A DNA stretch of 64,000 bases. Source: Gammaproteobacteria bacterium (GTDB taxonomy: Bacteria; Pseudomonadota; Gammaproteobacteria; Steroidobacterales; PWYM01). The stretch lies in the NCBI GenBank assembly GCA_020832005.1, contig JAFIFN010000002.1, forward strand, positions 13,600-77,599, read 5' to 3'. Made by a program: the position numbers and the translations under genes. Positions within the stretch are counted from its first letter, which is position 1. Each line of letters starts with the position of its first letter. This document shows, piece after piece, positions 46,688 to 64,000 of the stretch. Under the pieces are notes generated by a model, which was given only the letters and a program-made list of their open reading frames with translations, searched no databases and was not told where the DNA came from.

Positions 46688-46717
46688 GTTCAGCGCCCGA
46701 GCAGAAAGGCGGCGCGA

Positions 46718-46758
46718 GACGATCGGCAGTGCGAAATCCAGAAGCGCTGCCGGTCGTC
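46718..46758. terminator. putative bidirectional stem-loop between convergent genes
   Basis: GACGATCGGCAG (46718-46729) pairs with CTGCCGGTCGTC (46747-46758). This is a 12-bp stem with one G-U pair and a 17-nt loop. It lies between the TBDR stop (46687) and the VOC stop (46811). There is no clear U-tract. Confidence 0.4.
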
Positions 46759-46810
46759 TGTTACGCCGCCGACAGCTGAAGACTCTGCGCTGACGGCTGA
46801 AGCCGCCGCG

Positions 46811-47392: not shown

Positions 47393-47472
47393 GAGCACCC
47401 CGGTTGTCAAGGCAGTTGACAGACTCAGACTAGCTTGCCCTGGCTGCAAGGTCAATCGACTGGAAGCGGCGC

Positions 47473-48006
47473 TTATCTGGAGCGTCTTCGCTGGTTCACG
47501 GGACGCTGGCGCGTTGAGCTAGATGACCGCTTCGCACGGCTTGCGCCGGATGCCTTATCCACGCGCGGCGAAGGCTGTACGACGGGGCCCCAGTCGACTT
47601 CTGTAAGCGAGCGCTTAAGAGTGTTGAAGGCGGTTTTGCCGAGACGCTTTTCGAGTTCCCGGTCGATTCTGCGCATGCCGCGCATCGCCTCTATCCCACG
47701 GCGTTTGCCCTCGTCGGAGAACCTCACGACCTTCGAGCGCCCGTCGCTCGGGTCCGCAACCAGCGTGATCAGCCCTTCGCCTTCCATGGAGCGCAATGTC
47801 TGCTGAATCGCCTGCCGGCTGATGCCCAGGTTGCGGGCCAGATGCGCAGGGCGTGTTACGCCGTTGGCCACGTTCAACATGATCATGGATTCGCTTCTCG
47901 GCACAGTCGGTATGCCGCAGGAGAAGAAATGATTCTGAAGGCTCTCGTCGTACCAGTAATACGCCCGCAGCAGCCCACGAAGCAGGTAGTCCTTTTCAGT
48001 GCTCAT
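47473..48006 (-). CDS. MarR family transcriptional regulator
   Basis: ORF 47473..48006. Winged HTH ESMIMLNVANGVTRPAHLARNLGISRQAIQQTLRSMEGEGLITLVADPSDGRSKVVRFSDEG. Confidence 0.9.
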   Translation of the reverse strand: MSTEKDYLLRGLLRAYYWYDESLQNHFFSCGIPTVPRSESMIMLNVANGVTRPAHLARNLGISRQAIQQTLRSMEGEGLITLVADPSDGRSKVVRFSDEGKRRGIEAMRGMRRIDRELEKRLGKTAFNTLKRSLTEVDWGPVVQPSPRVDKASGASRAKRSSSSTRQRPVNQRRRSR

Positions 48007-48086
48007 AGTCGATCGCCCAGGGATGGACTGCGTATACGCGGCGCGCCCGAAGTCGCGATCCGCACCCAGCTACCAAGTCGCATCTA

Positions 48087-48101
48087 GTCAAGCCACTTGA
48101 C
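48087..48101. promoter_or_regulatory. inverted repeat overlapping a TTGACA box in the MarR/P450 intergenic region (candidate MarR operator)
   Basis: GTCAAG-CCA-CTTGAC (6-nt arms). The right arm overlaps TTGACA at 48097-48102. It lies between the divergent MarR gene (start 48006) and the P450 gene (start 48261). Confidence 0.35.
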
Positions 48102-48260
48102 ATACTGAAGGTCCTTTGAGATTGTTTCAACACGATGGAGGACAAATGGTGGCGAAGCGCAAGAATACGCGGCTTGGCTCCGACGCGTCCAGCGCATGGG
48201 TCTTCCTGCCGCGCCAGGGATTCACCTTTTCGTCAGCCGGCGTCGCTCAGAGGAGCAATC

Positions 48261-49487
48261 ATGAAGCATGAGCTTGATGTCGATGACTTCAACCTTCTCT
48301 CCACGAGCACCTTCAGCCATGGGCACCCTCAGGAGGCATACGATCGCATCAGGGCCACGAGTCCAGTCCTGAGACACGCCGGCTCTGCCGTGCAGCCGGA
48401 CTTCTGGGTACTCACCCGCTACGATGACATCCACAGCGTATCCATGGATGGTGAACGGTTCAGCTCCGCGAAAGGCTTTCGACTCCAGACGGACAATCGC
48501 GCGAGCATGGATCCCGAGATCGGCAGAATTCTCAGCCGGTTCCTCATCGCGATGGATCCGCCGGAACACACGCCATTCAGGCGGCTCATACAGCCAGCAT
48601 TCCTGCCCAACGCCCTGGCCGAGAAACGCCCCCGGATCCAGGCGAGCGTCGATGCCCTGATTGGCTCGCTTGAGCCCGGCATGAACGTCGAGTTCGTTCG
48701 CCAGGTCGCTGCGGTCGTACCGATTAAAACTATCTGCGCGATTCTTGGCGTCCCCGCGGAGGACGAGTCCAAGGTCATGGATTGGACCAACGGGATCTTC
48801 GGTACGGACGACCCCGATTACGCGATCACCCTGGAGGAGGCCAACCAGAAGTATCTCGCGGTGTTCGACTATGCGATATGGCTGGTCAGGAAGAAGCGCG
48901 AGCAGCCGGAAGACGACCTGATGTCGGTCCTGGCACATGCTGAGATCAATGGTGAACCGCTGGACGACGACACGCTCAAGAGCTATTTCTCGAACACGCT
49001 CGCGGCCGGCAATGAGACGACGCGAAGTTCGCTGGCAGGGGCCGTCTGGACCCTGTACAACCACCAGGCGCAGCTGAAACGCCTTATCGATGATCCTGAA
49101 CTCATCCCGAACGCCATCAACGAGCTGCTTCGACACTTCTCGCCCGTATACCAGATGATGCGCACAGCACGGACCAAGGTAGAGATTGGCGGACAGATGA
49201 TCAGCGAGGGCGAGCGTGTCGTCATGCTCTACGGAGCAGCCAACCACGACCCCGATATGTTCGAGGCCCCACACGAAGTGAGCGTCACTCGGGATAACGC
49301 CCAAAAGCACCTGGCATTCGGGGTAGGCATCCATCACTGCGCGGGATCAAGACTCGGCCGGATGCAACTACAGATGCTGCTCGCAGCGTTTCTGCAGCGC
49401 TTTCCAGGCTATCGGGTAACCGGTGAACCGACATTCCTCGCGTCGAACTTCGTGCAGGCGATGAAGTCCCTGCACGTGCGCCTCTAG
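48261..49487 (+). CDS. cytochrome P450
   Basis: ORF 48135..49487 trimmed to the ATG at 48261, with GAGGAG upstream. I-helix AGNETT, ExxR ELLR, and the haem loop FGVGIHHCAGSRLG (FxxGxHxCxG). Confidence 0.9.
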   Translation: MKHELDVDDFNLLSTSTFSHGHPQEAYDRIRATSPVLRHAGSAVQPDFWVLTRYDDIHSVSMDGERFSSAKGFRLQTDNRASMDPEIGRILSRFLIAMDPPEHTPFRRLIQPAFLPNALAEKRPRIQASVDALIGSLEPGMNVEFVRQVAAVVPIKTICAILGVPAEDESKVMDWTNGIFGTDDPDYAITLEEANQKYLAVFDYAIWLVRKKREQPEDDLMSVLAHAEINGEPLDDDTLKSYFSNTLAAGNETTRSSLAGAVWTLYNHQAQLKRLIDDPELIPNAINELLRHFSPVYQMMRTARTKVEIGGQMISEGERVVMLYGAANHDPDMFEAPHEVSVTRDNAQKHLAFGVGIHHCAGSRLGRMQLQMLLAAFLQRFPGYRVTGEPTFLASNFVQAMKSLHVRL

Positions 49488-49532
49488 CCTGTCCACGCAT
49501 CCGAAACAACAAGAGAACCCAGGGGAAGGGAC

Positions 49533-50201
49533 ATGGAGTTGATCTATCTCGAGTGCTCGCCGAGAAAACGGCTTTCAGTATCGATTCGGCTCGCACAAGA
49601 GTTCCTGGCCTCCTCGCGGAGAAAAGTGCCCGACCTGAAGGTGGACACCATCGACCTGTGGTCCCTGAGACTGCCGGATTTCAACGAATACTACCTCGAC
49701 GCGAAGTACAAGATCATCCGCGGCAAGCCCCACAGCGAAGAGGAAGCGACCGCATGGTCAGAGGTTGTTGCGATGACCGACCAACTCAAGCGCGCCGACG
49801 GCTATGTTGTCAGCCTGCCGATGTGGAACTGGTCGATTCCCTACAAGCTGAAACACTACATCGATCTTATCTGCCAACCGGGGCTAACCTGGGGCTACAG
49901 CCGCCGACGCGGACACTTCGGCCTGCTCGAAGACAAACCCACCGCCATCCTGCTGAGCAGCGGCAGCGTTTATAGCAGGGATGGAAGCGATGACAGCGAG
50001 GCCGCGTCGGAAACAATGCCCGAGTTCGTCAAGCCCTATCTTCGACATGTGCTCGGAATGATGGGATTGCGTAATCTGCACTTCGTGCATGCGGCAGGCT
50101 CGGACTACCCACCTGAGCATGCCCAACCCGCGTTCGAGCAAGCAAAAGAGGAGGCCAGAGCGCTGGGAGAAACACTGTGGTGCCACACTCAGACTTCATG
50201 A
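49533..50201 (+). CDS. FMN-dependent NADH-azoreductase / flavodoxin-like-fold quinone reductase family protein
   Basis: ORF 49533..50201. IYLECSPR.., ADGYVVSLPMWNWSIPYKLKHYIDLICQPGLTW and KPTAILLSSG parallel AzoR (PMYNFxIPxxLKxYxD). It lies 45 nt after the P450 gene. Confidence 0.75.
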   Translation: MELIYLECSPRKRLSVSIRLAQEFLASSRRKVPDLKVDTIDLWSLRLPDFNEYYLDAKYKIIRGKPHSEEEATAWSEVVAMTDQLKRADGYVVSLPMWNWSIPYKLKHYIDLICQPGLTWGYSRRRGHFGLLEDKPTAILLSSGSVYSRDGSDDSEAASETMPEFVKPYLRHVLGMMGLRNLHFVHAAGSDYPPEHAQPAFEQAKEEARALGETLWCHTQTS

Positions 50202-50230
50202 GCGAAGGCACAGGCGCCCCGTGCGCGGGA

Positions 50231-51982
50231 CTATTCGGGCAGGAGAATCTGCTCTTCGAAAATCTGCCGATCCGGAAGAATGACACCGACCTCCTCGGCG
50301 TACTTGTCCCACAGTCCGAGCATCTGCTTCAGACGATCCGGTTTGACCGGCGCAAGATCGTTGCGCTCGCCGGGATCGCGCTGCAGATCAAACAGCTCCC
50401 AATGCCCCTCCCGCGTTCGCGTATCAATGTTGATCGCCTTCCAGGTGCCCATTCGCACCGCCCGGCGCCCGAACAGCTCCCAGCCGAACACTTCCTGCGG
50501 ATCATGCACCTGCTGGGCGTCGCCGGAGAGATACGCCAGTAATGATTGCCCCCTCATCGGCAGCACCTCCCGTCCCTGGAAGACGCCGGCCGGCGGTTCA
50601 GCGCCGGCAAGCTCGAGCAGCGTCGGCGCAATATCCATGACGGTCATCGGAGCGAGCCTCACACCTCCCGCGCGCACGACCCCAGGATAACGCACAAAAG
50701 CTGCAACCCGGATGCCACCCTCCGTCGGGTAGCGCTTGAACAGGCGAAACGGGCTGCTGCTGACCGTCGCCCAGTAAGGTCCGGTGGTCACGAACGAGTC
50801 CTCAGAACCCATGGCTTCAAAGCTATGATCGAAGTTGGCGGCGACGAATTCCTTCCATATCGGACTGCGCTCGACACGCTCGCCTTCGGCGCCATTGTCG
50901 GATAAGAAGATCACCAGCGTCTCGTCGAGCTGCTCTTGCTCCTCCAGCAATTCGATCACGCGGCCCACATTGCGATCCATCCTGTCGATCATTGCCGCGT
51001 AAATCTCCATCCTGCGACTCTCGACGCGACGCTCGTCGGGCGACAGCGCCTGCCAGGCGTGGTTCAACAGATCAACGATCTGCGGATCGGGGTCTCCAAG
51101 CTGGATGCCCAGCTCTTCCATCGCGGCATGGCGGGCGAGCAGCACAGGCACATAGCCATCGTCATAACGCCCCTTGTGACGCGCAATATCCTCTTTGGGT
51201 GCCTGCAGCGGCCAATGGGGTGCGGTATAGGAAAGCAGCGCGAAGAAAGGCCGCGCATCATCGTGCTCGCGGTCTTCGAGATATTCGAGGAGCTTGTCGG
51301 TAAAGGTGTCCGAAGAATAGAAGTCCGCCGGCAAATCATCGAGCGTCTGCCCATCCTCACGATACAGCGGATCTGAAATCCCCTTCGGAGCAATCAGTCC
51401 CCAGCCGAAATGGTTGTGCCCGCCTGGAATCAGTGCAAAGGCACGCTCGAAACCACGCGCAGCCGGGTCGTGTTCAGGTTCATTGCCGAGATGCCACTTG
51501 CCCGACATCGCGGTGAAATAGCCGGCGTCGCGCATCAGAGCAGCAAGCGAAGCGACGCGGAAGTTGAGATGGCCCTCGTAACCCGGGCGGTCAATCTGGT
51601 TGGGCGTGCGCACCGCCCGCATATTGCCCAAACCCGCCTCGTGGCTCGATGTACCGGACAGCAGCATCGCGCGCGTCGGAGAGCATGTGGGTGAGGCATA
51701 GAATGCGCCCAGCCGGCTTCCTTCCATCGCGAGCCGATCAAGATTCGGGGTTGAGATCTCGCTCCCGAACGCGCCCAGGTCGGAGAAACCCATATCGTCA
51801 ACGACAATCAGGAGCACGTTAGGGGGGCGGCCTGGGATCTCGTCGGCAGTCGCTGCGAATGCGCTCGGCAGCAGGGTCATCGCGGCTACCACCGCTGCGG
51901 TACAAATCGTCGTACACAATACCGCCAGGCGAGCCAGAGAGTACGCGTATCGTGTGTCGGTGAAACGGGGACGCCAGTCCAT
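50231..51982 (-). CDS. arylsulfatase (Cys-type, formylglycine-dependent), secreted
   Basis: ORF 50231..51985 (TTG); the ATG is at 51982. It has a signal peptide ending AFA. PNVLLIVVDDMGFSDLGAFGS and the sulfatase signature [14 protein letters not shown]. It is a paralog of the 26123 gene. Confidence 0.9.
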   Translation of the reverse strand: MDWRPRFTDTRYAYSLARLAVLCTTICTAAVVAAMTLLPSAFAATADEIPGRPPNVLLIVVDDMGFSDLGAFGSEISTPNLDRLAMEGSRLGAFYASPTCSPTRAMLLSGTSSHEAGLGNMRAVRTPNQIDRPGYEGHLNFRVASLAALMRDAGYFTAMSGKWHLGNEPEHDPAARGFERAFALIPGGHNHFGWGLIAPKGISDPLYREDGQTLDDLPADFYSSDTFTDKLLEYLEDREHDDARPFFALLSYTAPHWPLQAPKEDIARHKGRYDDGYVPVLLARHAAMEELGIQLGDPDPQIVDLLNHAWQALSPDERRVESRRMEIYAAMIDRMDRNVGRVIELLEEQEQLDETLVIFLSDNGAEGERVERSPIWKEFVAANFDHSFEAMGSEDSFVTTGPYWATVSSSPFRLFKRYPTEGGIRVAAFVRYPGVVRAGGVRLAPMTVMDIAPTLLELAGAEPPAGVFQGREVLPMRGQSLLAYLSGDAQQVHDPQEVFGWELFGRRAVRMGTWKAINIDTRTREGHWELFDLQRDPGERNDLAPVKPDRLKQMLGLWDKYAEEVGVILPDRQIFEEQILLPE

Positions 51983-52144
51983 CAAGAGCTCCCGCAGTGA
52001 AGCGAAACCGCTACGGAGAAAGTGAGAATATCACGATCTGAAACGACAGCGACCGAACGACGAAGGGGACGCGATAACCAGTCACGAAGGCGGTACTAGA
52101 TGACGCTGGTCACACACAGTGAGCCAATTCCGCTGAAGGCAGGC

Positions 52145-52171
52145 TAAAGAAAGCGCCACCTCGGCCGACAA
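52145..52171 (+). promoter_or_regulatory. sigma-28 (FliA)-type promoter match immediately upstream of fliC
   Basis: TAAAGAAA (52145-52152), an 11-nt spacer, then GCCGACAA (52164-52171). The enterobacterial consensus as I remember it is TAAAGTTT-N11-GCCGATAA. The -10 element ends only 9 nt before the ATG at 52181. Confidence 0.55.
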
Positions 52172-52180
52172 GGTTGTGTA

Positions 52181-53350
52181 ATGAGCCAGGTCATCAACAC
52201 CAACGTCGCGTCACTCAACGCCCAGCGCAGTCTCGGGACCTCCCAGGGCTCGCTGGCCACGTCGTTGCAGCGACTCTCATCGGGGCTGCGGATCAACTCT
52301 GCAAAGGACGATGCCGCCGGGCTTGCCATCTCCGAGCGCTTCACCACGCAGATTCGCGGCGTCAACCAGGCCGTGCGCAACGCCAACGACGCGATCTCCC
52401 TGGCCCAGACCGCCGAGGGCGCGATGACGCAGATTAGCAGCAACCTGCAGCGCATCCGTGAACTCGCGGTCCAGGCGGTCAACGCCACCAACAGCGAACG
52501 TGACCGCGCCGCCCTCGACGCCGAGGCACAGCAGCTCAAGCAGGAGATCGATCGCGTCGCCGCGCAGTCGGAGTTCAACGGCACCCGGCTGCTCGATGGC
52601 GGATTCAGCGGCCAGGCCTACCAGGTCGGCGCCAATGCAGGCCAGCTGCTGACGCTGCCCTCGCTGCAGAGTCTGCGCCTGGCAGATGTCCGCGGAGCCG
52701 ACGGCTTCCGCGTGGACGCACCGGCCGGCACCACCGTCGGCACGAGTCTGCCGCTTTCGATCGATGTCTCTACGCTGATATTCGATCAGGATGCGGATTC
52801 CGAGCGTGAGGCGCAGGACGCCTTCATGCAGGCGGTGGCGGCAGCCTTCGATGCCGCGCCCATTTCATCGGCGACTTACGATGCCGCCTCTGGCGACCTG
52901 ACGATACGCAACGTGGGCTGGGCGAGCCTGATCGTTGGCCTGGATAACATAGGCGGCACCACGGCGGATCTTGGCTTCGGACAGTCGCTGGTGATGAACG
53001 TCTCAAGCCTGAGCCTGGCGGTCGTACCGGCGGAGAGCACGATCGACTCGGTCTCACTGGCCACGCCCCAGTCGGCGACGCTGGCGATTGCGGCCATGGA
53101 CAGGGCGCTGGAGACGGTCAACGGCCAGCGCGCGCAGGTGGGCGCGCTACAGAACCGCTTCGAATCGGTCATCGCGAATCTGCAAACCACTTCCGAGAAC
53201 CTGACGACGTCGCGCAGCCGGATCCAGGACGCTGACTTCGCCACCGAAACGGCCAGCCTGGTGCGCGATCAGATACTGCAGCAGGCCGGCACGACCATGC
53301 TGGTGCAGGCCAACGCGCTGTCGCAGAACGTGCTCAGCCTGCTGCGTTGA
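52181..53350 (+). CDS. fliC: flagellin
   Basis: ORF 52181..53350, 389 aa. N-terminal MSQVINTNVASLNAQRSLGTSQGSLATSLQRLSSGLRINSAKDDAAGLAISERF and C-terminal LQNRFESVIANLQTTSENLTTSRSRIQDADFATETASLVRDQILQQAGTTMLVQANALSQNVLSLLR are canonical D0/D1 flagellin segments. Confidence 0.95.
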   Translation: MSQVINTNVASLNAQRSLGTSQGSLATSLQRLSSGLRINSAKDDAAGLAISERFTTQIRGVNQAVRNANDAISLAQTAEGAMTQISSNLQRIRELAVQAVNATNSERDRAALDAEAQQLKQEIDRVAAQSEFNGTRLLDGGFSGQAYQVGANAGQLLTLPSLQSLRLADVRGADGFRVDAPAGTTVGTSLPLSIDVSTLIFDQDADSEREAQDAFMQAVAAAFDAAPISSATYDAASGDLTIRNVGWASLIVGLDNIGGTTADLGFGQSLVMNVSSLSLAVVPAESTIDSVSLATPQSATLAIAAMDRALETVNGQRAQVGALQNRFESVIANLQTTSENLTTSRSRIQDADFATETASLVRDQILQQAGTTMLVQANALSQNVLSLLR

Positions 53351-53518
53351 TTCACCCGCGCGTCACGCGCGATGGTCCACACCACGGCGCTGCCCCCAGC
53401 GCGACACAGCAATGTTCGGACAGCCTTGGTCCCGGCCCGTCATTTGCGCGCTACAGGATGACACCAAAGCTGTCATCCGGCATATTCCAAAACGTACACC
53501 ACACTCGGAGCTTCGGGC

Positions 53519-56227
<2,709 letters not shown>

Positions 56228-56282
56228 AGGGTAACTGATAGTATCCGCGAGCCTATTCAGCTGGTTCGGGAGTCGCCCTGCC

Positions 56283-57398
56283 ATGTCGCTGTCACGCCTT
56301 GCCTGCCTGGTGCTGCTCGCGATATCGATGCCGCTGACTGGCTGCGGGGGCGGCGGCGGTGACACCGCGCAGGCACCCCCTGCGTCGCCGCCCCCTGCAG
56401 CGGCCGATCCCGCCGCAGCGCTCGACGCCGCCGCAGCTGAAGCGTTCGCCGAAGACGCGCCGGCCTCCGTGCCGGGCATGGCACTGGCCATCTACCGCCC
56501 CGGTGGTGAGCGCGTGTTCCTCGGCGTCTATGGCGACTTCGACTCGGAAGGCCGCTACGCTGTGGCCTCTGCCAGCAAGCTGGTCACCAGCCTGGTGCTG
56601 CTGAGGCTGATCGACCAGTCGTTCCTGGAGCTGACCAGCACCACCGGTGCTGTGCTGGGCTGGAGCGGCCCGCAGGCGGCCATCACCCTTGAGCAGTTGC
56701 TGTCGTTCACCTCAGGCCTGGCGCGCGATGCTGACTGTCTGCGCGAGGTGGCCATCACCCTGGCCGAATGTGCCGCCCAGATCGGTGCCGGGGCCCTGGT
56801 CGCAGCGCCCGGGACACGCTTTGACTACGGCGGTTCGCACATGCAGGTGGCCGCCCGCATGGCGGAGGTGGTCACCGGCTCGAACTGGAACGCGATATTT
56901 CGAACACAACTCGCTGACCCGCTCGGCCTCGCCGCTGATGTTCGCTACACCACGCTGCCGCGTCAGCGCATCGGGTTCAGCAACCCGCTTATCGGAGGCG
57001 GTCTGGCAGCGTCGGTCGATGAGTATGCCCGGCTGGTCGAGGCCGCGCTGGGGGCGCAGGCCGATGTGCAGGGTGTTGCGATCGACGCGGATCTGGCGGC
57101 GGCGATCTTCCGCTCACCCTACCCGGAAGCGCAGCGCGGCCAGGTGCCGGAACTGGCCGAAGTCCAGGACTTCGGCTACGGGCTCGGTGCCTGGCTGGAG
57201 TGCGATACACCGGGCACGGGCTGCGACATCGCCTCGTCCGCCGGGCTGTTCGGCTGGATGCCCTGGGTGGATCGCGAAGCCGGTTACATCGGCATTCTGG
57301 CGATGGAGGGCTCGGCCGTGCCCGGGGTCGCGACGGGTTTCTCCGTGCCACTGGCCGAGCGGCTGCGTCCGCTGGTATTGAAGGTACTTGGGAACTGA
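56283..57398 (+). CDS. serine hydrolase (beta-lactamase/transpeptidase-like, class C-related) lipoprotein
   Basis: ORF 56283..57398. Lipobox MPLTGCGG and an Ala/Pro-rich linker. The S-x-x-K motif ASASKLVT follows VPGMALAIYRPGG. A YGGSH-type motif is also present. Confidence 0.8.
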   Translation: MSLSRLACLVLLAISMPLTGCGGGGGDTAQAPPASPPPAAADPAAALDAAAAEAFAEDAPASVPGMALAIYRPGGERVFLGVYGDFDSEGRYAVASASKLVTSLVLLRLIDQSFLELTSTTGAVLGWSGPQAAITLEQLLSFTSGLARDADCLREVAITLAECAAQIGAGALVAAPGTRFDYGGSHMQVAARMAEVVTGSNWNAIFRTQLADPLGLAADVRYTTLPRQRIGFSNPLIGGGLAASVDEYARLVEAALGAQADVQGVAIDADLAAAIFRSPYPEAQRGQVPELAEVQDFGYGLGAWLECDTPGTGCDIASSAGLFGWMPWVDREAGYIGILAMEGSAVPGVATGFSVPLAERLRPLVLKVLGN

Positions 57399-57752: not shown

Positions 57753-58211
57753 TCAGACCGCCGAATCGATCGAGTACAGCACAATCAGATGGCCGTCGGA
57801 GTCGACCACACCACGTTCCCGGCCACGCCGGCCATCCTGAGTATGCAGCACCTGCTCCTGCATCACTTCGACACCGTTAGTTGAAAGGAGGGCTGCGCTC
57901 ACTCGATCCATGTCTGCTACGCGGATCACTGCGGCCGCCAGGCGTGGCTTTGGCAATGGCGGCAAATCGACACCGCGGACTTCCGTCAACGCCAGTGTGC
58001 GTTGCTGAGTGGGGGTGCTGAGCGTACACAGGCGCAGCTGCGCCTGCGCTGGCATCCCGAACACGATCCACGAATAGGCGATATCCTCGCCCCCGATAAT
58101 GTAATCAACGCTAAACCCGAGTACATCCCGATAGACAGTCAGCGCATGTTCGAGGTCACGGACGATCAGATTGGCGCGCTGAAAAAACGGGGCCACTGCC
58201 GCTGTGCTCAT
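57753..58211 (-). CDS. VOC family protein
   Basis: ORF 57753..58211. ANLIVRDLEHALTVYRDVLGFSV and a C-terminal ..GVVDSDGHLIVLY fit a single VOC domain pair. Confidence 0.7.
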   Translation of the reverse strand: MSTAAVAPFFQRANLIVRDLEHALTVYRDVLGFSVDYIIGGEDIAYSWIVFGMPAQAQLRLCTLSTPTQQRTLALTEVRGVDLPPLPKPRLAAAVIRVADMDRVSAALLSTNGVEVMQEQVLHTQDGRRGRERGVVDSDGHLIVLYSIDSAV

Positions 58212-58244: not shown

Positions 58245-59078
58245 TCAGTTGGCTGACTTCACCCCATGATGTGTGGCGAATTCACCTGCGAAACGCCCGC
58301 CGTCCACGACGATTTCGGCCCCCGTGATTCCACGCGCGGCATCGCTGCACAGGAATACCACCATGTTGCCAATATCCCTTGGGTGTCCGAGTCTGCCCAG
58401 CGGCGTTTTCGCGATATTCGCGCGTACGAAGGCCATTGCTCCCTCCTCGCCGTAGAGAGCGATCGCACCGGGCGATGGGCGATCCGCGTCTTCAAACATG
58501 ACGCCCGGATGCACAGCATTGACACGCACGGCGAGTCCTCCATGGCGGCCTTCCAGGGCAGCAGCCCGTGCCAGATTGGTCGAACCACCCTTGGCCATGG
58601 CATAGGCCGTCGAGTTCGGGGTACCCCGAAGTGCCGATAGGGCCGATATGTTCACGATCGAGCCCTCGCCGCCCGGGTTGTGTCGCATGACGCGAAACGC
58701 ATGGCGGATTCCAAGGAACATACCGAGCACGTTGACGCGTACGACGAAGTGGAGATCCTCGAGCGAGAGTTCGCCGATAGGGCGCAGACGGGAGACGCCG
58801 GCATTGTTGAGTAGAACGTCAAGCCGTCCGTAGCGTTCAACCACACCGTCCACGACCCGCGACCAGTCGGCATCGACAGCAACGTCGTGCGGAACGTATT
58901 CCGCGCGAAGTCCCGCGGCGGCCAGAAGATCGAGCGTCTCGGCAGCACCTTGCTCATTGCGCCCCGTGATCACAACCGTTGCACCCGCTGACGCCAGCGC
59001 TAACGCACTGCCGCGACCAAGGCCCGCGGTACCACCGGTCACCAGCGCGACCCGACCGTGCAACACCGGCCTGACCAT
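58245..59078 (-). CDS. SDR family oxidoreductase (catalytically complete)
   Basis: ORF 58245..59129 trimmed to the ATG at 59078 (MVRPVLHGRVALVTGGTAGLG). NNAG, and STAYAMAKGG (Y-x-x-x-K present). The start lies 1 nt after the upstream SDR-like stop. Confidence 0.85.
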   Translation of the reverse strand: MVRPVLHGRVALVTGGTAGLGRGSALALASAGATVVITGRNEQGAAETLDLLAAAGLRAEYVPHDVAVDADWSRVVDGVVERYGRLDVLLNNAGVSRLRPIGELSLEDLHFVVRVNVLGMFLGIRHAFRVMRHNPGGEGSIVNISALSALRGTPNSTAYAMAKGGSTNLARAAALEGRHGGLAVRVNAVHPGVMFEDADRPSPGAIALYGEEGAMAFVRANIAKTPLGRLGHPRDIGNMVVFLCSDAARGITGAEIVVDGGRFAGEFATHHGVKSAN

Positions 59079-59079
59079 C

Positions 59080-59811
59080 TCAGGCTGCAAGGAATCCGGC
59101 GTCGACGGGTAACTCCAGGCCCGTGACATAACCGGATTCTTCTGTGAGCAGGAACACGACTGCCGCGGCTACGTCCTGCGCGGCGACCGGTACCGCATTG
59201 GGAAGTACGCGCCCATCCGGGAAGTGTTCCGGATCGTCGTCCATACGCCCTGCGAGCACCGCGTTGACGAGAATGCCGTCGCGTTCCCGGGCGCATTCGA
59301 GCGCAGCCGACTTCGTTGCCATGAGGATGCCGCGCGCTGCCGCGCAGGTCGCCGAGCAACCTGCAGCGGCGGTGCGAGCAAGCACACTTGTAACGTTGAC
59401 GATGCGTCCGCCACCTCGTGCGCGCAGCAGCGGAATACCGTACTTCATGCCCAGCCAGCTCGCAGTGCCGTTACGATTGAACAGGTCCATGAACCGATCT
59501 GGCGACAGGCACTCCACGTCGTCGAAACGAAATGCCTGCGCTGCGTTTACCAGCAGGTCAAGGCCTCCCGATTGCTTGGTCAGCTGCTCACTGACGTACG
59601 CCCACTGCGATTCGTCAACCGGGTCAAAGGCGATGGCCCGTGCCCCCACCTGTGCGCCCGCAGCACGCTGCGCCGCCGCAGCGTCGCGATCTGCAAACCA
59701 GGTGTCGACGCCAGCCGAGGCAAGAAGCCTGCCCACGGCCGCGCCGACAGCATTCCCGGTACCGGTCACCAGCGCGACGAGATCCTCTCTGGCGCCTAAG
59801 GCTGGTGCCAC
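59080..59811 (-). CDS. SDR-fold protein lacking the catalytic Tyr and Lys (possible non-catalytic partner subunit)
   Basis: This is the C-terminal 243 codons of ORF 59080..60585. The GTG at 59809-59811 has AGAGG upstream and overlaps the MFS stop by 16 nt. LVALVTGTGNAVG glycine motif. Ser is present (NVTS), but 13 and 17 residues later the expected Y and K are T and A (GCSATCAAARG, where GLSAYSASKAA is expected). Confidence 0.7.
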   Translation of the reverse strand: MAPALGAREDLVALVTGTGNAVGAAVGRLLASAGVDTWFADRDAAAAQRAAGAQVGARAIAFDPVDESQWAYVSEQLTKQSGGLDLLVNAAQAFRFDDVECLSPDRFMDLFNRNGTASWLGMKYGIPLLRARGGGRIVNVTSVLARTAAAGCSATCAAARGILMATKSAALECARERDGILVNAVLAGRMDDDPEHFPDGRVLPNAVPVAAQDVAAAVVFLLTEESGYVTGLELPVDAGFLAA

Positions 59812-61169
59812 GCGTCCGCCTCTTCTGCAGAACGACGATAATTGGTCCGCCCCAGCAGCAGGATCACCAGCCCGACAGAACCGACCACGACCGTAACGAG
59901 CAGCAGCGAGTACCGCAGCAGCGCTTCGTCGCGGAACACGTAATCCGTGAGCATGGCCACCGAAGTGGGGCCAAGAAACAATCCGGCGAGACTGATGACC
60001 AGCAGGTAGAGCGCGGATATCTGCGCGCGGAACTCGGCCGGAGCCACGTGGACCACGGCCGCCGAACTCGAAGCCGACGCCATCGCCATCGCAAACATGG
60101 CCGGGCACAGGAGCGCCACCGCCACCAGTGGGCCAGGCGCCAGCGGCACGAGGATCGCGAACGGCAGCGCAAGCAGCACGCTGGCAAGGAAAGTAAGGTA
60201 CGGCGCATCCGGCCGGCCGCGTCGATACAGGACCTCGGACACCCTGGCACCGGTGATCACGCCGAGAGGACCGAACACGGCGAGCACGCCCCCGTAGTAA
60301 AGGCCTGCGGTAGCCGCATCGAGCCCCCAGGTACGTTGGAACATGCTGGGCAACCAGAAGTACGAATAGCCGATCGTGGTAATAACCGAGTTTCCGAGGA
60401 ACACTGCGCCAAACGTACGCCAGCGCTGCAGTACGAATCTCGCGGTATCGGCTACCGGAAGGCGCTTGCGGACACCCACCGCCCCACCGGTCATGAACCC
60501 ACGACGCAAGGGTTCGCGGATCGTCAGCATGACAACAGCGAGCAGAATGCCTGGCAGCCCGACCACCACGAAGGTCATCTGCCAAGGCTCAAGTTCACCG
60601 ACAAGCGGCCAAACGACCCCCTGAGCCTGAGTTACCCAAAGGACAACCTGCGCACCCAGCAGAAAGGCCAGCCCCGCGCCGATCGACTGCCCCATCGTGT
60701 ATAGGCCGATGGCCTTCAGCGCGGTTCGCCTCGGGAAGTAGTCCGAAATCATGGAATAGGCGGAGGGCGACAGCGTGGCTTCACCCACGCCGACCATGAT
60801 CCGGGATACGAAGAGATGCAGGAAGTTGGCTGCCAGACCACAGGCTGCCGTCGCAGCCGACCACAGGGCCACGCCGACGACGATGATGTTGCGTCGGTTT
60901 GAGCGGTCAGCGAGAACCCCGATGGGAATACCTAGCGTGGCGTAGAAGATTCCGAAAGCAGGACCCATCAGCCAGGCCATCTGCACATCGGAAAGACCTA
61001 GGTCTGCCTTGATCGGTTCGATCAACAACGCGAGTATGCCGCGGTCGATAAACGCGACAATGTAGGCGACGATCAAAAGGGCAACTACGTACCAGGCATA
61101 GAGAGGCCGTGGATACGGGACGGTCGCCTCGGTTTTGACATCGCCGTTACCCGACTCGACAAGCGCCAT
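59796..61169 (-). CDS. MFS transporter
   Basis: ORF 59796..61169. 12-TM layout. FIDRGILALLIEPIKADLGLSD and LADRSNRRNIIV (motif A-like). The start overlaps the upstream stop by 1 nt (TGATG). Confidence 0.85.
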   Translation of the reverse strand: MALVESGNGDVKTEATVPYPRPLYAWYVVALLIVAYIVAFIDRGILALLIEPIKADLGLSDVQMAWLMGPAFGIFYATLGIPIGVLADRSNRRNIIVVGVALWSAATAACGLAANFLHLFVSRIMVGVGEATLSPSAYSMISDYFPRRTALKAIGLYTMGQSIGAGLAFLLGAQVVLWVTQAQGVVWPLVGELEPWQMTFVVVGLPGILLAVVMLTIREPLRRGFMTGGAVGVRKRLPVADTARFVLQRWRTFGAVFLGNSVITTIGYSYFWLPSMFQRTWGLDAATAGLYYGGVLAVFGPLGVITGARVSEVLYRRGRPDAPYLTFLASVLLALPFAILVPLAPGPLVAVALLCPAMFAMAMASASSSAAVVHVAPAEFRAQISALYLLVISLAGLFLGPTSVAMLTDYVFRDEALLRYSLLLVTVVVGSVGLVILLLGRTNYRRSAEEADAWHQP

Positions 61170-62206
61170 CAGCAGTTCACCGGCGTGCTGTCGGCAGCCT
61201 CAAGCAGGCACCAGGTGCTGCCGTCCGGGGCATCACACAGCACGGCGCGCTCACCGAATTCATTGGCAACCGGTGCGCTGTGCACCGTGCCACCGGCCTC
61301 CTCCACACGCCTGCACGCCGTTTCCAGACCGAGCATACGCAAACTATAGGTCGTGTAGCCAAGCGCTCCGGGCGTCGTATGGGCCCGGTAGTCGGGCATA
61401 TCGATGTCAGGCGAGAAATTGAACAGCGTCACTCGTCCAGAACGTTTGCCAGCGCCTAACGGATCGGAACGCGGATCATCGAACTTTACCAAGCGGAAAC
61501 CCTCGCCTTCAGCCAAGCCCAGAATATCCTTACCCGAGGTCCCGATGTCCTCCCAAGGCAGCTCGAAGTCACCCGTACGACGTAGACCAAGGGTCTCGTC
61601 GTAGAACGACAGCGAAGTATCATCGGCACCCTGTATCACCAGACAGAAGTGTGTGAACTGGCTGGCTTCGAACATGCTGCCACGGTGGATCGTCCCGTAC
61701 AAAGGATGATCCACATCGGCGCGCTCGAACAGCACCTGACGAGACAGAGGCTGGGCGAGCGCCATCTCCACCACGCCGGGAATGGGTCGCCTGAAAGGGG
61801 TATGCCCCGGCTGCGCTGGCACGAAGTCAGGGGCGTGGATGCGGATATCGCCGCCCTGCTGACGGAGGTATTTCGCGTGCGCGAGCATTCGCCCCAATTG
61901 TTTGACCATGCCGGCTGTCCAACGGCCGCCCCGGACCCGGAATGGCGCCAACTCAAGACCCCGCCCCGTCGGGGAGCTCCACTGAACCAGTCTGACAAGA
62001 CCATGGTCCGCCTGCTGATGCCACATGCGTACAGCGCGGCACGCAGAAGGAACACCGTAGAGGCGTTGCGCGCCCTGCGCGTCGAGCTGGCCGATGTCGC
62101 CGACCCGGTAGCCGAACAACTCCCAATAGGCGATCGCCGATACCAGGTCCGGCACCCCCACCATGACGTCGAGGACGCCACCGGTGACTTGGCCTTCCGG
62201 AGTCAT
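61169..62206 (-). CDS. multi-module VOC-fold protein, paralog A (function unknown)
   Basis: ORF 61169..62323 trimmed to the ATG at 62206, 345 aa. It has three VOC-like modules: VGVPDLVSAIAYWELFGYRV.., QFTHFCLVIQGADDTSLSFYDETLGL.., YSLRMLGLETACRRVEEAGG..EFGERAVLCDAPDGSTWCLLE. By eye it is roughly 55-60% identical to the upstream paralog. Confidence 0.65.
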   Translation of the reverse strand: MTPEGQVTGGVLDVMVGVPDLVSAIAYWELFGYRVGDIGQLDAQGAQRLYGVPSACRAVRMWHQQADHGLVRLVQWSSPTGRGLELAPFRVRGGRWTAGMVKQLGRMLAHAKYLRQQGGDIRIHAPDFVPAQPGHTPFRRPIPGVVEMALAQPLSRQVLFERADVDHPLYGTIHRGSMFEASQFTHFCLVIQGADDTSLSFYDETLGLRRTGDFELPWEDIGTSGKDILGLAEGEGFRLVKFDDPRSDPLGAGKRSGRVTLFNFSPDIDMPDYRAHTTPGALGYTTYSLRMLGLETACRRVEEAGGTVHSAPVANEFGERAVLCDAPDGSTWCLLEAADSTPVNC

Positions 62207-62237
62207 CGCCTGCCCCGGTGCACGCGCAGATGATGGC

Positions 62238-63281
62238 TCATGCCGCCAAGGCCAGCGTATCGTCGGAGGCCACGAAGCACCAAGGTGTGCCATCGGGCGC
62301 AGTGGCGACGAAACTTCGCTCACCGAACTCGTTCACCATGACATCACTCTGGGCGCCCGCGCCGCTTGCAGCTGCAGTGGCGTGTGTTGCCTCCACATCG
62401 GCGACACGTAACGAATAAAGCGAGTGACCCCAGGCGCCTGGACGCGATGCGATGCGCATGTCCTCCAGCTCACTGTCGGCGGAGAAATTGAACAGAATGA
62501 TGCGCCCGGAACGCTTGTTCACCCCACCCTCGGAGCGAGGATCGTCAAAACGGAACATGTGGAAGCCCTCACCTTCCCGAAGCTCAAAGATATCCTTGCC
62601 GGAGCTGCCGACATCAGCCCACGAGAGCTTGAAGTCCCCGCTACGCTGAAGACCCAACACTCGGTCGTAGAATTCGAATGCATCCGCGGCAACGCCGCAG
62701 AGGATCACGCACACGTGCGTGAACTGGCTTGCTCGCATCAGACAATCGTGGTTTACAGCCCCGTACAAAGGGCTCGGAAAGTCCGCTCGCTCGAAAAGCA
62801 CCTGCCGATACAGAGGCTGCACGACGGCCATCTCCATTGCGACAGGCAGCTCACGACGGAACGGAGCCATTGGCGTACCTGATCCAGGTAGAACATCAGG
62901 GTGGAACATCCTGACCTCTCCACCCTGTGCGGCATGATACTTGGCATGTGCAATCATCCGGGCGATGCGGTCCAGCTCCATCGCACTCCAGCGGCTGCCG
63001 TGCACACGGAACGGCGCCATGCCGAGCCCGGGGCCACTCGGATTCTCCCATTGCCAAAGGCGCACCAGGCCATGGTCCGCCTTCTGGTGCCACATGCGGA
63101 CGGCCTGAAGCGCGCCGGAGTGCCCGTACAACCTATCGGCGCTGGTTGCATCCAGTGCACCGATATCTCCCACTCGGTAGCCGAAGAGCTCCCAGTAGGC
63201 GATTGCCTCGACCAGATCAGGGACACCTATGCAGACATCGAACGCCCCGCCGCGAACATGGCCAGTCTCACCCCCCGCCAT
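62238..63281 (-). CDS. multi-module VOC-fold protein, paralog B (function unknown)
   Basis: This is the C-terminal 347 codons of ORF 62238..63890, starting at the ATG at 63281 (MAGGETGHVRGGAFDVCIGVPDLVEAIAYWELFGYRV). It is colinear with paralog A along its whole length. The start overlaps the receptor stop by 14 nt. Confidence 0.65.
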   Translation of the reverse strand: MAGGETGHVRGGAFDVCIGVPDLVEAIAYWELFGYRVGDIGALDATSADRLYGHSGALQAVRMWHQKADHGLVRLWQWENPSGPGLGMAPFRVHGSRWSAMELDRIARMIAHAKYHAAQGGEVRMFHPDVLPGSGTPMAPFRRELPVAMEMAVVQPLYRQVLFERADFPSPLYGAVNHDCLMRASQFTHVCVILCGVAADAFEFYDRVLGLQRSGDFKLSWADVGSSGKDIFELREGEGFHMFRFDDPRSEGGVNKRSGRIILFNFSADSELEDMRIASRPGAWGHSLYSLRVADVEATHATAAASGAGAQSDVMVNEFGERSFVATAPDGTPWCFVASDDTLALAA

Positions 63282-64000
63282 AGCGCACCGTGAAGGTCGC
63301 ACCAAAAGTTCGGCCATCGGCCGGACTGACATTCCACGCGCGTGCAAAGAATCCGTTCCCGAGCGAATTGGCTGCGTCGATGAAACGAATACCCACCGGG
63401 GGCGTGCGGTCGTCGAATACGTTACGCGCCCAGAGACTTGCCTCCCATCGTTCGGAAACCAGCCCGAGGCGCAGGTTGACCCGTGTCGAATCACCCGTCG
63501 AGGCAAGATTGGCCGACGTCGAGTACTGCTTCGACTGGTAGAGCATTTCCGACCGCAAGTACCAGCTAGCCCCGGCCAGCGGCGCAAACTCACGCTCGAA
63601 AGTGGCGACCATATTCGCCTGATGCTTGGATTGCCTTGGTAACTGGTTGCCAGATACGTCGCCGTCAGGTGCGAAACTGGGCAGCGGCGCGAGCGCCACA
63701 TCGAAGAACTCGTCGAACTCCGCATCGGCCAGCGCATAGCCAGCCTGTATCGTCCAGTCGTTACCCAGGCGCGCCAGGAGCTCGACCTCGATACCCTTGA
63801 CTGTGCTGGCTGCTGCGTTGGTGACGTAGGTGTTGGCGCTTGGGCCGGCCTGCGAGGCCGATGAGATCTGCTGATCCTTCCAGTCGACATAGAAGACGCC
63901 GAAATTCAGGACTGCGCGCCCGTCGGCCAGTGTCAGCTTGGCCCCGGTTTCGTAGGTCCAGTTTTGCTCAGGATTATAGCTTCGCTCCTCGGGGAAAACG
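63268..64000 (-). CDS. TonB-dependent receptor, C-terminal part (gene continues past the right edge)
   Basis: ORF 63268..63699 gives ...YLRSEMLYQSKQY..RVNLRLGLVSERWEASLWARNVFDD..RTFGATFTVRYGGG, typical terminal barrel strands. The frame stays open upstream to the window edge, where the reverse translation continues as barrel-like sequence. Confidence 0.8.
   Translation of the reverse strand, partial: VFPEERSYNPEQNWTYETGAKLTLADGRAVLNFGVFYVDWKDQQISSASQAGPSANTYVTNAAASTVKGIEVELLARLGNDWTIQAGYALADAEFDEFFDVALAPLPSFAPDGDVSGNQLPRQSKHQANMVATFEREFAPLAGASWYLRSEMLYQSKQYSTSANLASTGDSTRVNLRLGLVSERWEASLWARNVFDDRTPPVGIRFIDAANSLGNGFFARAWNVSPADGRTFGATFTVRYGGG

Follow-up and report, generated by a model that had tools for sequence, protein, structure and literature searches.

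The neighbouring genes for VOC-A and VOC-B in the window (the whole analysed stretch of 64,000 nucleotides) possibly encode two cytoplasmic isoenzymes that differ in pocket specificity and act on an imported lipophilic carbonyl compound; this interpretation is tentative and is held with somewhat less than even confidence. The two proteins belong to a small, well-conserved VOC subfamily with no studied member and an atypical set of conserved residues, and as paralogues which differ at a handful of predicted pocket positions they represent a natural experiment. They are encoded in a translationally coupled minus-strand operon in the order receptor, VOC-B, VOC-A, MFS transporter, two SDRs and a small VOC protein (Table 1).

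Table 1. Features of the VOC-A/VOC-B operon in the window.
Feature	Position	Strand	Basis and remarks
TonB-dependent receptor, 3' part	63268..64000	-	ORF; gene start past the window end
VOC-B, 347 aa, B clade, four-module VOC fold	62238..63281	-	ORF, BLASTP, AF2, Foldseek, tree
VOC-B modules 2-3, residues 97-266, predicted functional concavity	62484..62993	-	AF2 secondary structure, clade-specific and invariant columns
VOC-A, 345 aa, A clade	61169..62206	-	ORF, BLASTP, AF2, Foldseek; GenBank MCC5867040.1 'VOC family protein'
VOC-A modules 2-3, residues 95-264, predicted functional concavity	61415..61924	-	AF2, clade-specific columns, column coupling
Spinster-family MFS transporter, 457 aa	59796..61169	-	PF07690; best PDB match HnSpns
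SDR 1, 243 aa, GTG start	59080..59811	-	ORF; generic SDR matches only
SDR 2, 294 aa (ATG 59129) or 277 aa (GTG 59078)	58245..59129	-	ORF and profile searches
Small two-module VOC protein, 152 aa	57753..58211	-	PF00903, E 4e-9

The sequence-only reading had described two adjoining VOC reading frames on the minus strand, and the ORF list returned them at exactly the same positions. The overlaps it had reported were likewise seen at the sequence level: the TGA of the receptor gene overlaps the ATG of VOC-B by 14 nt (ATGGCGGGGGGTGA), and the stop codon of VOC-A and the start codon of the MFS gene have 1 nt in common (TGATG). The MFS transporter, the two SDRs and the further VOC gene were also found downstream as it had described. 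VOC-B and VOC-A are separated by 31 nt, and the start of SDR 1 overlaps the MFS stop codon by 16 nt. The receptor, completed from the identical contigs L001-L003, comprises 736 amino acids with Plug and barrel domains; its nearest NCBIfam model, a siderophore-receptor subfamily, scored below its cutoff (170 vs 223.5 bits). Just past the window end lies a trio of genes for a DUF1330 protein, a small VOC protein and a CurA-like reductase. Two more small VOC proteins (157 and 163 aa) are encoded past the window end, and a three-way alignment identified them as paralogues of the 152-aa protein.

VOC-A and VOC-B share 54% identical and 69% positive positions over 337 amino acids (BLASTP, E 5e-133). 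The likeness noticed by eye is therefore real, even if the value is just under the 55-60% estimated, and the shared blocks quoted at that time are present in the alignment. Homologues of VOC-A matched down to E 1e-60, and comparison with an 80%-identical orthologous locus gave dN/dS ratios of 0.11 for VOC-A and 0.09 for VOC-B; on these grounds both genes are considered real. In a tree of close relatives, separate A and B clades were formed, each of the seven tandem pairs consisted of one A and one B gene, and the order was B then A in every pair. The duplication, as previously proposed, is genuine and conserved, and it is old. Across 70 sequences, down to 37% identity, 36 columns rich in His, Asp, Glu and Arg are invariant, and each of the two proteins keeps all of these residues. 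Decay of one copy, which had been considered before, is contradicted by the retained residues and by the dN/dS of about 0.1 in both genes; judged from the sequences, a catalytic subunit with a decayed partner appears disfavoured, and two isoenzymes are the best reading.

The family is small, with 341 representative clusters and 462 loci in 185,579 species, and most of its members are single-copy genes in Nostocales. Neither protein matched any NCBIfam model even at E ≤ 1, TIGR00068 (glyox_I) included, a PDB sequence search gave no significant match, the family has no solved structure, and the database names of its members are generic and uninformative. The assumption of an uncharacterised family was thus borne out. 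Some database records label members as 'bleomycin resistance protein', a name assigned automatically.

AF2 models with pLDDT values of 96.4 (VOC-A) and 95.6 (VOC-B) revealed not three VOC modules per protein, as had been suggested, but four. In the VOC-A model, the beta-alpha-beta-beta-beta modules comprise residues 13-76, 95-163, 181-264 and 283-336 and are predicted to be arranged in two pairs; VOC-B likewise shows four such modules. Pfam recognised only the C-terminal module pair, and weakly (PF00903, E about 1e-5, above its cutoff). A Foldseek search, which had been recommended for finding the nearest characterised VOC enzymes, assigned the models to the VOC superfamily fold with 203-286 PDB VOC matches at E ≤ 1e-3 and placed maize GlxI and PcpA at the top. 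Whole-chain matches were obtained only with maize GlxI, B. cereus 1zsw, PcpA, B. subtilis 3oaj and GLOD4 (TM 0.52-0.57, rmsd 5-7 A). In the models, the modules are arranged as in monomeric glyoxalase I and PcpA, with two lateral concavities formed by modules 1+4 and 2+3.

The best whole-chain match was GLX1 of Zea mays (PDB 5d7z, 6bnz; TMq 0.53-0.57, TMt 0.62-0.67), which also carries four beta-alpha-beta-beta-beta modules in one chain. Maize GlxI possesses two lateral concavities, a single one of which is active (PMC5412262). VOC-A and VOC-B differ from it in having only 12-14% identical residues, about 60 additional residues and an extra helix in modules 1 and 3, and no glutathione-related genes occur near them. 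The PcpA/LinE/MhqO proteins share the four-module arrangement and a similar length at 10-13% identity (TMq 0.52-0.54 for 4huz, 0.55 for 1zsw and 0.53-0.55 for 3oaj). Human GLOD4, whose own function is unknown, has a similar arrangement (TM about 0.5), but it is eukaryotic, only 7-10% identical and does not share the gene context. Type I extradiol dioxygenases (BphC, XylE, HsaC) and HPPD/HMS belong to the same superfamily and also have four modules, but the extradiol enzymes and HPPD overlay on only one domain of the models (TM 0.25-0.3, rmsd about 20 A). The 1+2/3+4 module pairing of the extradiol enzymes was rejected, as BphC, XylE-type enzymes, HsaC and LapB superposed at TM 0.23-0.32 and an rmsd of about 20 A. 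Proteins with the VOC fold perform very different chemistries, and the fold itself does not reveal the function.

The assignment of residues to the concavities combines the topology of the strands with motif alignment and with profile alignments that were weak (hhalign probability 13-44%); its register may be off by one. Modules 2-3 of VOC-A contain the invariant residues E147, R156, E161, H186, D243, D244 and R258; in the wider family, position 161 is E or Q and position 258 is R or K. His186 aligns with the metal ligand His5 of E. coli GloA, and its equivalent in VOC-B is His189, also located in modules 2-3. At the canonical metal positions, the sequences appear to retain just two residues, His186 (module 3, strand 1) and residue 13 (module 1, strand 1), which is always acidic, while Glu/Gln161 and, in VOC-B only, Glu100 are candidates for further ligands. 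In the alignment with GloA, its His74 corresponds to residue 286 (Leu/Thr) and its Glu122 to residue 333 (Thr/Cys and others). Where GlxI has its ligands, module 4 carries Leu/Thr286 and Thr/Cys333, and module 1 carries Asp/Glu13 and probably Arg72. Of the four ligands of the GlxI site, at most two to three are present in the module 2/3 concavity (His186, Glu/Gln161, and Glu100 in VOC-B only) and one in the other. Judged from the sequences, an assignment to glyoxalase I (lactoylglutathione lyase) was rejected, because no equivalog model matched and the His/Glu/His/Glu (or Gln/Glu/His/Glu) metal site is incomplete.

It had been proposed to look for a His/His/Glu metal triad, and neither protein keeps it at the extradiol or the PcpA-type positions. 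Of the Fe(II) triad of type I extradiol enzymes only the first His (His186) is present. In PcpA, iron is bound by His11, His227 and Glu276 (PMC3204407), which are located in module 1 (strand 1) and module 4 (strands 1 and 4), respectively. Their equivalents, deduced from module topology and not from a structure-based alignment, are Asp/Glu13, Leu/Thr286 and Thr/Cys333, and a PcpA/LinE-type Fe(II) site was rejected. These replacements, together with the sequence identity of 10-14%, make it quite improbable that VOC-A and VOC-B act as hydroquinone-type (PcpA/LinE/MhqO) Fe(II) dioxygenases, which would cleave an aromatic or hydroquinone ring in the imported compound and leave an unsaturated ring-fission product to the CurA-like reductase and the SDRs. 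Such a role would fit the top structural ranks of PcpA (4huz), 1zsw and 3oaj, and the best match of the LysR regulator encoded in the gene set was PcaQ, with a score of 160 bits that lies below the cutoff. An ene-reductase step following ring fission would be similar to maleylacetate reduction; however, none of the usual ring-fission partners, such as an ALDH or a hydrolase, accompanies the gene set constantly. Glyoxalase-I-like proton transfer is tentatively preferred to dioxygenation with Fe(II)-dependent ring cleavage. The least certain part of the isoenzyme interpretation concerns this chemistry, which would be that of an isomerase or lyase, probably metal-assisted, on a keto-aldehyde, ketol or enone.

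The incomplete metal-ligand sets in both concavities could also indicate non-catalytic binding or sequestration proteins, comparable to the VOC proteins of bleomycin or mitomycin resistance, and the name given to some records would agree with this. This is very improbable: names of this kind are automatic, the many His, Asp, Glu and Arg residues among the 36 invariant columns are kept across phylum-level distances, and the operon is shared with redox enzymes and transporters.

The differences between the two paralogues cluster in modules 2 and 3, beside the invariant His186. Columns 239, 241 and 260 discriminate the clades strictly and columns 100, 124, 229, 238 and 340 under relaxed conditions, and seven of these eight fall in modules 2-3. 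The A-specific residues are L/M100, H124, R238, L239, K241 and T260; at the same A positions, VOC-B carries the B-specific residues Glu, Phe, His, Met, Arg and Ile, respectively. Columns 241 and 260 form the second strongest coupled pair and carry charged residues, which suggests a position on the open face of the sheet; the coupling analysis was underpowered (Neff about 107) and alone does not separate the module pairings. Since the paralogues differ almost only at predicted concavity residues, they are interpreted as isoenzymes with different preferences for substrate, isomer or step. The working site would be the module 2/3 concavity around His186, Asp243, Arg258, Glu147 and Glu161.

The sequence-only reading had considered a heteromer, for which the tight coupling of the genes speaks. 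An obligate heteromeric enzyme, with coupling ensuring 1:1 synthesis of the subunits, would also explain the constant B-then-A order, the retention of both copies since the old duplication, the tight B/A junctions (a 4-nt overlap in loci L004, L005 and L091, the short gap in the window) and the fact that, wherever the contig permits checking, no A-clade gene was seen without an upstream B gene. However, lone B-clade genes occur within the same gene set (L007, L092, L094, L097) and, in the tree, branch from within the paired B genes, and an obligate heteromer is therefore not supported. In addition, four modules provide two complete concavities per chain, so that no partner is needed for building a site, and the small number of clade-specific residues map to the predicted pocket instead of forming a broad surface patch. 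Overall, a heteromer is considered unlikely.

The gene set, composed in shuffled order of TonB receptor, Spinster-type MFS, LysR regulator, DUF1330 protein, small VOC proteins, CurA-like ene-reductase and SDRs, recurs in seven independent tandem loci and in several single-copy loci. The cross-genome comparison that had been suggested showed that the tandem pair recurs with receptor and MFS, and the receptor adjoins the VOC genes in every tandem locus. The constant partners are the receptor and the Spinster-type MFS, usually joined by the DUF1330 protein, a small VOC protein and the CurA-like reductase. The 152-aa small VOC protein of the window recurs in L091 and L093. Of the proposed uptake and catabolic operon, the core of VOC pair, receptor and MFS was confirmed, but the two SDRs do not belong to the constant partners. 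The reductase (CurA/LTB4-12HD-like) reached 346 bits vs the cutoff of 440 bits of NF058644; it belongs to the same ADH_N_2/MDR subfamily, and its assignment to the CurA equivalog was rejected. Among 29 non-cyanobacterial loci, 11 combine the VOC gene with an orthologous MFS gene, and these span VOC identities of 43-100%. The majority of the family, formed by the Nostocales members, consists of stand-alone genes with non-conserved neighbours, and the link to the transporter is consequently limited to the proteobacterial branches.

The best PDB match of the MFS protein was HnSpns (6e8j/6e9c, E 1.8e-47), compared with 2.8e-17 for DgoT. The residues D41, R42, D60, R122, E129, Y277 and R289, which serve as protonation-switch and substrate residues in HnSpns (PMC9440201), are all seven identical in the alignment. 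Judged from its sequence, the transporter is a member of the Spinster family, shorter than the lipid transporters HnSpns, SPNS1 and SPNS2 (457 vs about 498 aa). The context of the Hyphomonas HnSpns orthologue differs, with two tandem Spns genes, an APH-type kinase and no VOC gene. To our knowledge, no native cargo has been assigned to bacterial Spinster homologues; with its LysR/MarR regulators, receptor, transporter and enzymes, the gene set provides a defined regulon in which such a cargo could be sought.

According to the isoenzyme interpretation, VOC-A and VOC-B would process a compound carried across the envelope by the TonB receptor and the Spinster-type permease. This compound would most likely be organic and either amphipathic or lipophilic, with carbonyl, enone or hydroxyl groups. 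The redox partners may act next on the compound or its products; they comprise the two SDRs, the CurA/PTGR1-like ene-reductase and a PQQ dehydrogenase that is present in some genomes. In a rather improbable extension, the enzymes would perform a new VOC chemistry with a non-canonical catalytic set in modules 2/3 (His186, Asp243, Arg258, Glu147, Glu161) on an imported oxidised lipid or amphipathic carbonyl, A and B being tuned to two isomers or successive intermediates. If true, the conserved cluster would for the first time link a bacterial Spns homologue to a physiological substrate and a pathway.

The Spinster-type MFS could also export instead of import, as bacterial Spns proteins can be efflux pumps (PMC9440201). 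This would be in line with a defence regulon against reactive carbonyls and other electrophiles instead of a catabolic pathway, in which the VOC proteins, the ene-reductase and the SDRs would detoxify reactive lipid-derived or quinone-like compounds and the products would leave the cell by this transporter. MarR and HxlR-type regulators in L007, L091, L093 and L100, an ECF sigma factor and a thioredoxin adjoining L004, and the alkenal/one-reductase type enzyme of the set would fit. The same applies to the amine-oxidase, DUF1365 and CMAS lipid-modifying genes beside a VOC gene of the distant clade, and the stand-alone Nostocales genes are compatible with housekeeping protection. TonB-dependent receptors, however, only import, and the receptor gene is translationally coupled to VOC-B in the window and adjacent in every tandem locus; moreover, the PQQ dehydrogenases in two loci suggest oxidation for use. 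A defence function is regarded as unlikely. If the role proved to be ordinary detoxification, the results would be of value only for the annotation of a few hundred 'VOC family protein' entries.

Two further gene contexts are suggestive only. GlcD-like FAD 2-hydroxyacid oxidases are encoded beside the VOC gene in five loci of a more distant clade, and in two alphaproteobacterial loci a COG0523 metallochaperone is part of a CobW-amidase-VOC operon.

The two ORFs of the tandem pair, here called A (VOC-A) and B (VOC-B), agreed with the minus-strand coordinates proposed by the sequence-only reading, and the junctions described there were found in the sequence as well. [quoted passage not shown] The exact identity of the pair, which had been left to an alignment, was 54% by BLASTP (69% positives, 337 residues, two 1-residue gaps, E 5e-133). 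In a scan of the operon block no internal promoter-like site was detected, and terminator-like sites were not commoner than in shuffled sequence. Three identical contigs from three public samples (L001-L003) extend past the window end and complete the receptor to 736 aa. There, a PcaQ-like LysR regulator gene, a gene for a 202-aa DUF1330 protein, two more small VOC genes (157 and 163 aa; the former termed Glx157) and a gene for a zinc-ADH-type reductase resembling the NADPH ene-reductases CurA/PTGR1 are oriented divergently from the operon (L001 2818-6622). The public gene calls for the second short-chain dehydrogenase (SDR2) are inconsistent (272, 277 and 294 aa). The neighbouring genes at window 44468-57398 are seemingly unrelated to the operon.

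Features of the window in and beside the operon of the tandem VOC pair
Feature	Position in window	Strand	Remarks
VOC-B	62238-63281	minus	ORF, 347 aa
VOC-A	61169-62206	minus	ORF, 345 aa
MFS transporter	59796-61169	minus	Spinster family
SDR1	59080-59811		downstream of MFS
SDR2	58245 to 59078 or 59129	minus	start ambiguous: ATG at 59129 (294 aa, 50-nt overlap with SDR1) or GTG at 59078 (277 aa)
Small VOC (VOC152)	57753-58211	minus	152 aa
Beta-lactamase-family protein	56283-57398		
FG-GAP repeat protein	53519-56227		902 aa
Flagellin	52181-53350		
Sulfatase	50231-51985	minus	
Cytochrome P450	48135-49487		
Second TonB-dependent receptor	44468-46687		

AlphaFold2 models of both proteins, built with a 70-sequence alignment (pLDDT 96.4 for A and 95.6 for B), showed four beta-alpha-beta-beta-beta modules per chain, which in A span residues 13-76, 95-163, 181-264 and 283-336, with an extra short helix in module 1 and in module 3. 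The three modules of the sequence-only reading were therefore rejected. A structure-based search with Foldseek against the PDB gave whole-chain superpositions (TM 0.5-0.57, rmsd 5-7 A) only with the monomeric maize glyoxalase I (GlxI), the glyoxalase-family protein 1zsw of B. cereus, PcpA (4huz), 3oaj of B. subtilis and human GLOD4. In contrast, extradiol dioxygenases, HPPD and hydroxymandelate synthase aligned over their full length in sequence order, but only one domain could be superposed (TM 0.23-0.32, rmsd about 20 A), and membership of A and B in this type was rejected. On the analogy of dimeric GlxI, modules 1+4 are expected to form one concavity of A and B, and modules 2+3 the other. 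The two similar domains of maize GlxI give rise to two lateral concavities, of which one is active and one is cryptic (PMC5412262). No significant internal repeat was found when the profiles of the chain halves were compared.

Across the 70 sequences, which reach down to 37% identity, 36 columns are invariant, including H63, D67, H68, R72, W96, E147, R156, H186, D243, D244, R246, S256, E316 and D328 (numbering of A), and all invariant residues are present in both A and B. R95, H110, Q157, R162, R255, Y287 and R290 are among the many residues kept in more than 90% of the sequences. The canonical metal ligands were mapped by hhalign to E. coli GloA, which was informative for modules 3 and 4 only. 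The invariant His186 on strand 1 of module 3 aligned with GloA His5, residue 286 (Leu/Thr) on strand 1 of module 4 with His74, and residue 333 (Thr/Cys and others) on strand 4 of module 4 with Glu122; residue 13 on strand 1 of module 1 is Asp or Glu in all sequences. The extradiol His/His/Glu triad, the conservation of which the sequence-only reading had left to be checked, is therefore absent. PcpA binds its metal by His11, His227 and Glu276 (PMC3204407), and this site is likewise missing from the equivalent positions of A and B. A PcpA-like dioxygenase with its metal site shifted would be an alternative reading of A and B. In the module 2/3 concavity, His186 and Glu/Gln161 are candidate ligands, joined by Glu100 in the B clade alone; the strand register of this region is uncertain by one residue. 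In two alphaproteobacterial MAGs (L013 7459-11002 and L086 3510-7049), a single-copy family member is the last gene of a CobW(COG0523)-amidase-VOC operon, which weakly suggests that the VOC protein may be a metal-dependent client of the metallochaperone.

A and B belong to an uncharacterised subfamily within the well-known VOC superfamily. Neither protein matched any NCBIfam model even at E<=1, and Pfam gave PF00903 alone, as a weak match to the C-terminal half. The best match in single-sequence and profile searches of all PDB sequences was a small VOC protein at E 2e-5. Searched exhaustively with a profile, 1.84 billion cluster representatives contained only 341 matches at E<=1e-3, and 120 with E<=1e-30. 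In 185,579 species, each represented by one genome, 462 loci were detected. The best 80 of these are mostly from Nostocales, and the others from Steroidobacteraceae, further gamma- and alphaproteobacterial MAGs and Acidobacteria; the protein search added the actinomycete Yinghuangia soli and an Aggregatilineales genome. Among 72,556 plasmids tblastn found no match, and a metagenome scan gave only 6 loci. Database naming is generic throughout ('VOC family protein', 'bleomycin resistance protein', 'catechol 2,3-dioxygenase-like...'), and literature searches with the gene combination, DUF1330 plus glyoxalase and the accession numbers returned no study of the family. The sequence-only reading had been correct in not assigning the pair to a known family.

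In a neighbour-joining tree rooted with more distant members, two clades separate among the close relatives, one with A and one with B. Seven protein pairs encoded on the same contig have one member in each clade, and the gene order is B then A in every readable tandem locus. On average, the sequences of the A clade are 61% identical to one another and those of the B clade 63%; A and B share 55%, and identity to the outgroup averages 41%. The single-copy genes of four Steroidobacteraceae-type loci (L007, L011, L092 and L094) are nested between paired B genes in the B clade, so A was probably lost there. In comparison to the 80%-identical orthologous locus L004, dN/dS was 0.11 for A and 0.09 for B (MFS 0.065; receptor 0.052). 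With dN/dS near 0.1 and the invariant residues complete in both proteins, decay of one copy was rejected; neither gene is decaying. These data show that the pair, already taken for a duplication from the sequence alone, goes back to an old tandem duplication which has been maintained.

At the 85% level only three columns distinguish the clades by fixed residues: 239 is Leu in A and Met in B, 241 is Lys in A and Arg in B, and 260 is Thr in A and Ile in B; in the outgroup, 241 is Asp and 260 is Lys. Five more columns separate the clades at the 75% level: 100 with Leu/Met in A and Glu in B, 124 with His and Phe, 229 with Leu and Phe, 238 with Arg and His, and 340. Seven of these eight columns are located in modules 2 and 3, and none in module 1 or in the strands of module 4. 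In a mean-field coupling analysis (242-269 sequences, Neff 107-133, gap artefacts cleaned out), which also recovered local strand contacts, the pair 241-260 ranked second in coupling strength. Counts among the 100 best long-range pairs do not separate the module pairings (M2-M3 15, M1-M4 14, M1-M2 14, M3-M4 6). Columns 241 and 260 lie on the adjoining strands 3 and 4 of module 3 and carry charged residues, and are therefore placed on the open side of the sheet, which they share with His186, Asp243 and Arg258. The gathering of discriminating columns and of the 241-260 coupling in modules 2 and 3 points to the concavity between them as the predicted working site. It also points to A and B differing in specificity, rather than being an active and an inactive subunit. 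An obligate heteromer of A and B would be an alternative; the heteromer considered in the sequence-only reading found no support.

The gene set around the pair is conserved and equally uncharacterised. The window (L001-L003) and L004 share the arrangement LysR / receptor-B-A-MFS-SDR-SDR-VOC152, with DUF1330, Glx157 and the CurA-like reductase upstream; L005 (Parasphingopyxis) has LysR / receptor-B-A-MFS-small VOC. L091, L093 and L100 show LysR / B-A-receptor with a receptor of a different family (814-817 aa), and also contain MarR, MFS, small VOC, DUF1330, Glx157 and CurA-like reductase genes at varying positions. The contig of P0025 carries B-A-receptor-MFS-ADH-PQQ dehydrogenase. The single B-type genes of L007 and L097 have MFS, DUF1330, Glx157 and CurA-like partners as in the tandem loci. 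In a clade of about 44% identity to A, an orthologous MFS gene is located immediately upstream of the VOC gene in L032, L040, L054 and L081, which also contain small glyoxalase and alpha/beta hydrolase genes. A GlcD-like FAD oxidase is encoded in L040, L054 and L081, and immediately upstream of the VOC gene in L062 and L069, where the orthologous MFS was not detected. When ORFs from 29 non-cyanobacterial loci were clustered, 11 loci had the MFS and 10 a receptor; 6 had the CurA-like reductase and 5 the GlcD-like oxidase. The SDR pair is an inconstant member. In Nostocales the VOC gene stands alone without a conserved neighbour, any shared one occurring in at most 21 of 81 loci.

The MFS protein belongs to the Spinster family. 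Among solved structures, HnSpns (6e8j/6e9c; E 1.8e-47, vs 2.8e-17 for DgoT) is by far its best relative, and the alignment shows identity at all of Asp41, Arg42, Asp60, Arg122, Glu129, Tyr277 and Arg289. Roles in protonation switching, in gating and in the binding of substrate were attributed to these seven residues of HnSpns; its native substrate is lipophilic but of unknown identity, and the direction of transport is unresolved (PMC9440201). Alternatively, the gene set might be a regulon for defence against electrophiles, in which the MFS would act as an exporter. The reductase is closest to NADPH curcumin/dihydrocurcumin reductase and leukotriene-B4 12-hydroxydehydrogenase/15-oxoprostaglandin 13-reductase, and the LysR regulator to PcaQ, all below the respective cutoffs (equivalog cutoffs for the reductase). 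The three small VOC proteins (VOC152 and those encoded at L001 3921-4905) are mutual paralogues with Arg/Thr, not His, at the strand-1 ligand position, and no solved relative was found among the PDB sequences. DUF1330 matched only weakly the unnamed hypothetical protein 2fiu (E 2e-4).

In its operon the pair is coupled to genes for an importer in the outer membrane and a Spinster-type transporter in the inner membrane, and its recurring company consists of small VOC proteins and redox enzymes for carbonyls and alkenes. A and B would act in the cytoplasm on the transported compound, as their N-termini show no visible signal peptides. This compound is probably amphipathic, with carbonyl, enone or alcohol functions. 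The site would be the concavity between modules 2 and 3, with different specificities of A and B. A GlxI-like proton transfer (isomerase or lyase chemistry) is favoured over ring-cleaving dioxygenation, because the dioxygenase triads are missing, the arrangement of the fold is GlxI-like, and 2-hydroxyacid oxidases and a hydrolase are encoded beside the distant clade; it is the weakest link of the proposed scheme. Alternatively, A and B may be non-catalytic binding proteins. The description in the sequence-only reading held except for the module count, and its interpretation held in outline, apart from the heteromer. The pair is moderately interesting, mainly as a tractable way into a new VOC activity and into the cargo of a bacterial Spinster transporter.

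Some further observations were made in the neighbourhoods. An orthologue 89% identical to the crystallised HnSpns is encoded in Hyphomonas sp. WL0036 (L102 10001-14029), where its gene and that of a Spns paralogue (498 aa each) are arranged in tandem next to a gene for an APH-type kinase; no VOC gene was found near it, and this context differs from the operon of A and B. In the clade of about 44% identity to A, amine-oxidase, DUF1365 and CMAS-type lipid-modifying genes and a GlcD-like FAD oxidase gene lie upstream of the VOC gene (L040 3361-12506; also L017, L032, L054, L069 and L081), and in L040 genes for an alpha/beta hydrolase and a DUF4112 protein are located 3' of it. DUF1838 genes occur within 9 kb of a family member in a Steroidobacteraceae MAG (L007 1241-2077) and in Yinghuangia soli (L010 15139-16113), which may be coincidental. 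In two loci with the tandem pair (L100 12180-14270 and the contig of P0025), a gene for a PQQ-dependent dehydrogenase (about 697 aa) comes after that for the MFS; one of the two dehydrogenases has a cytochrome c domain. Furthermore, DUF1330 (47-73% identical across loci), Glx157 and the reductase (both 69-73%) form a trio which is more conserved than the large VOC genes (57-61%).
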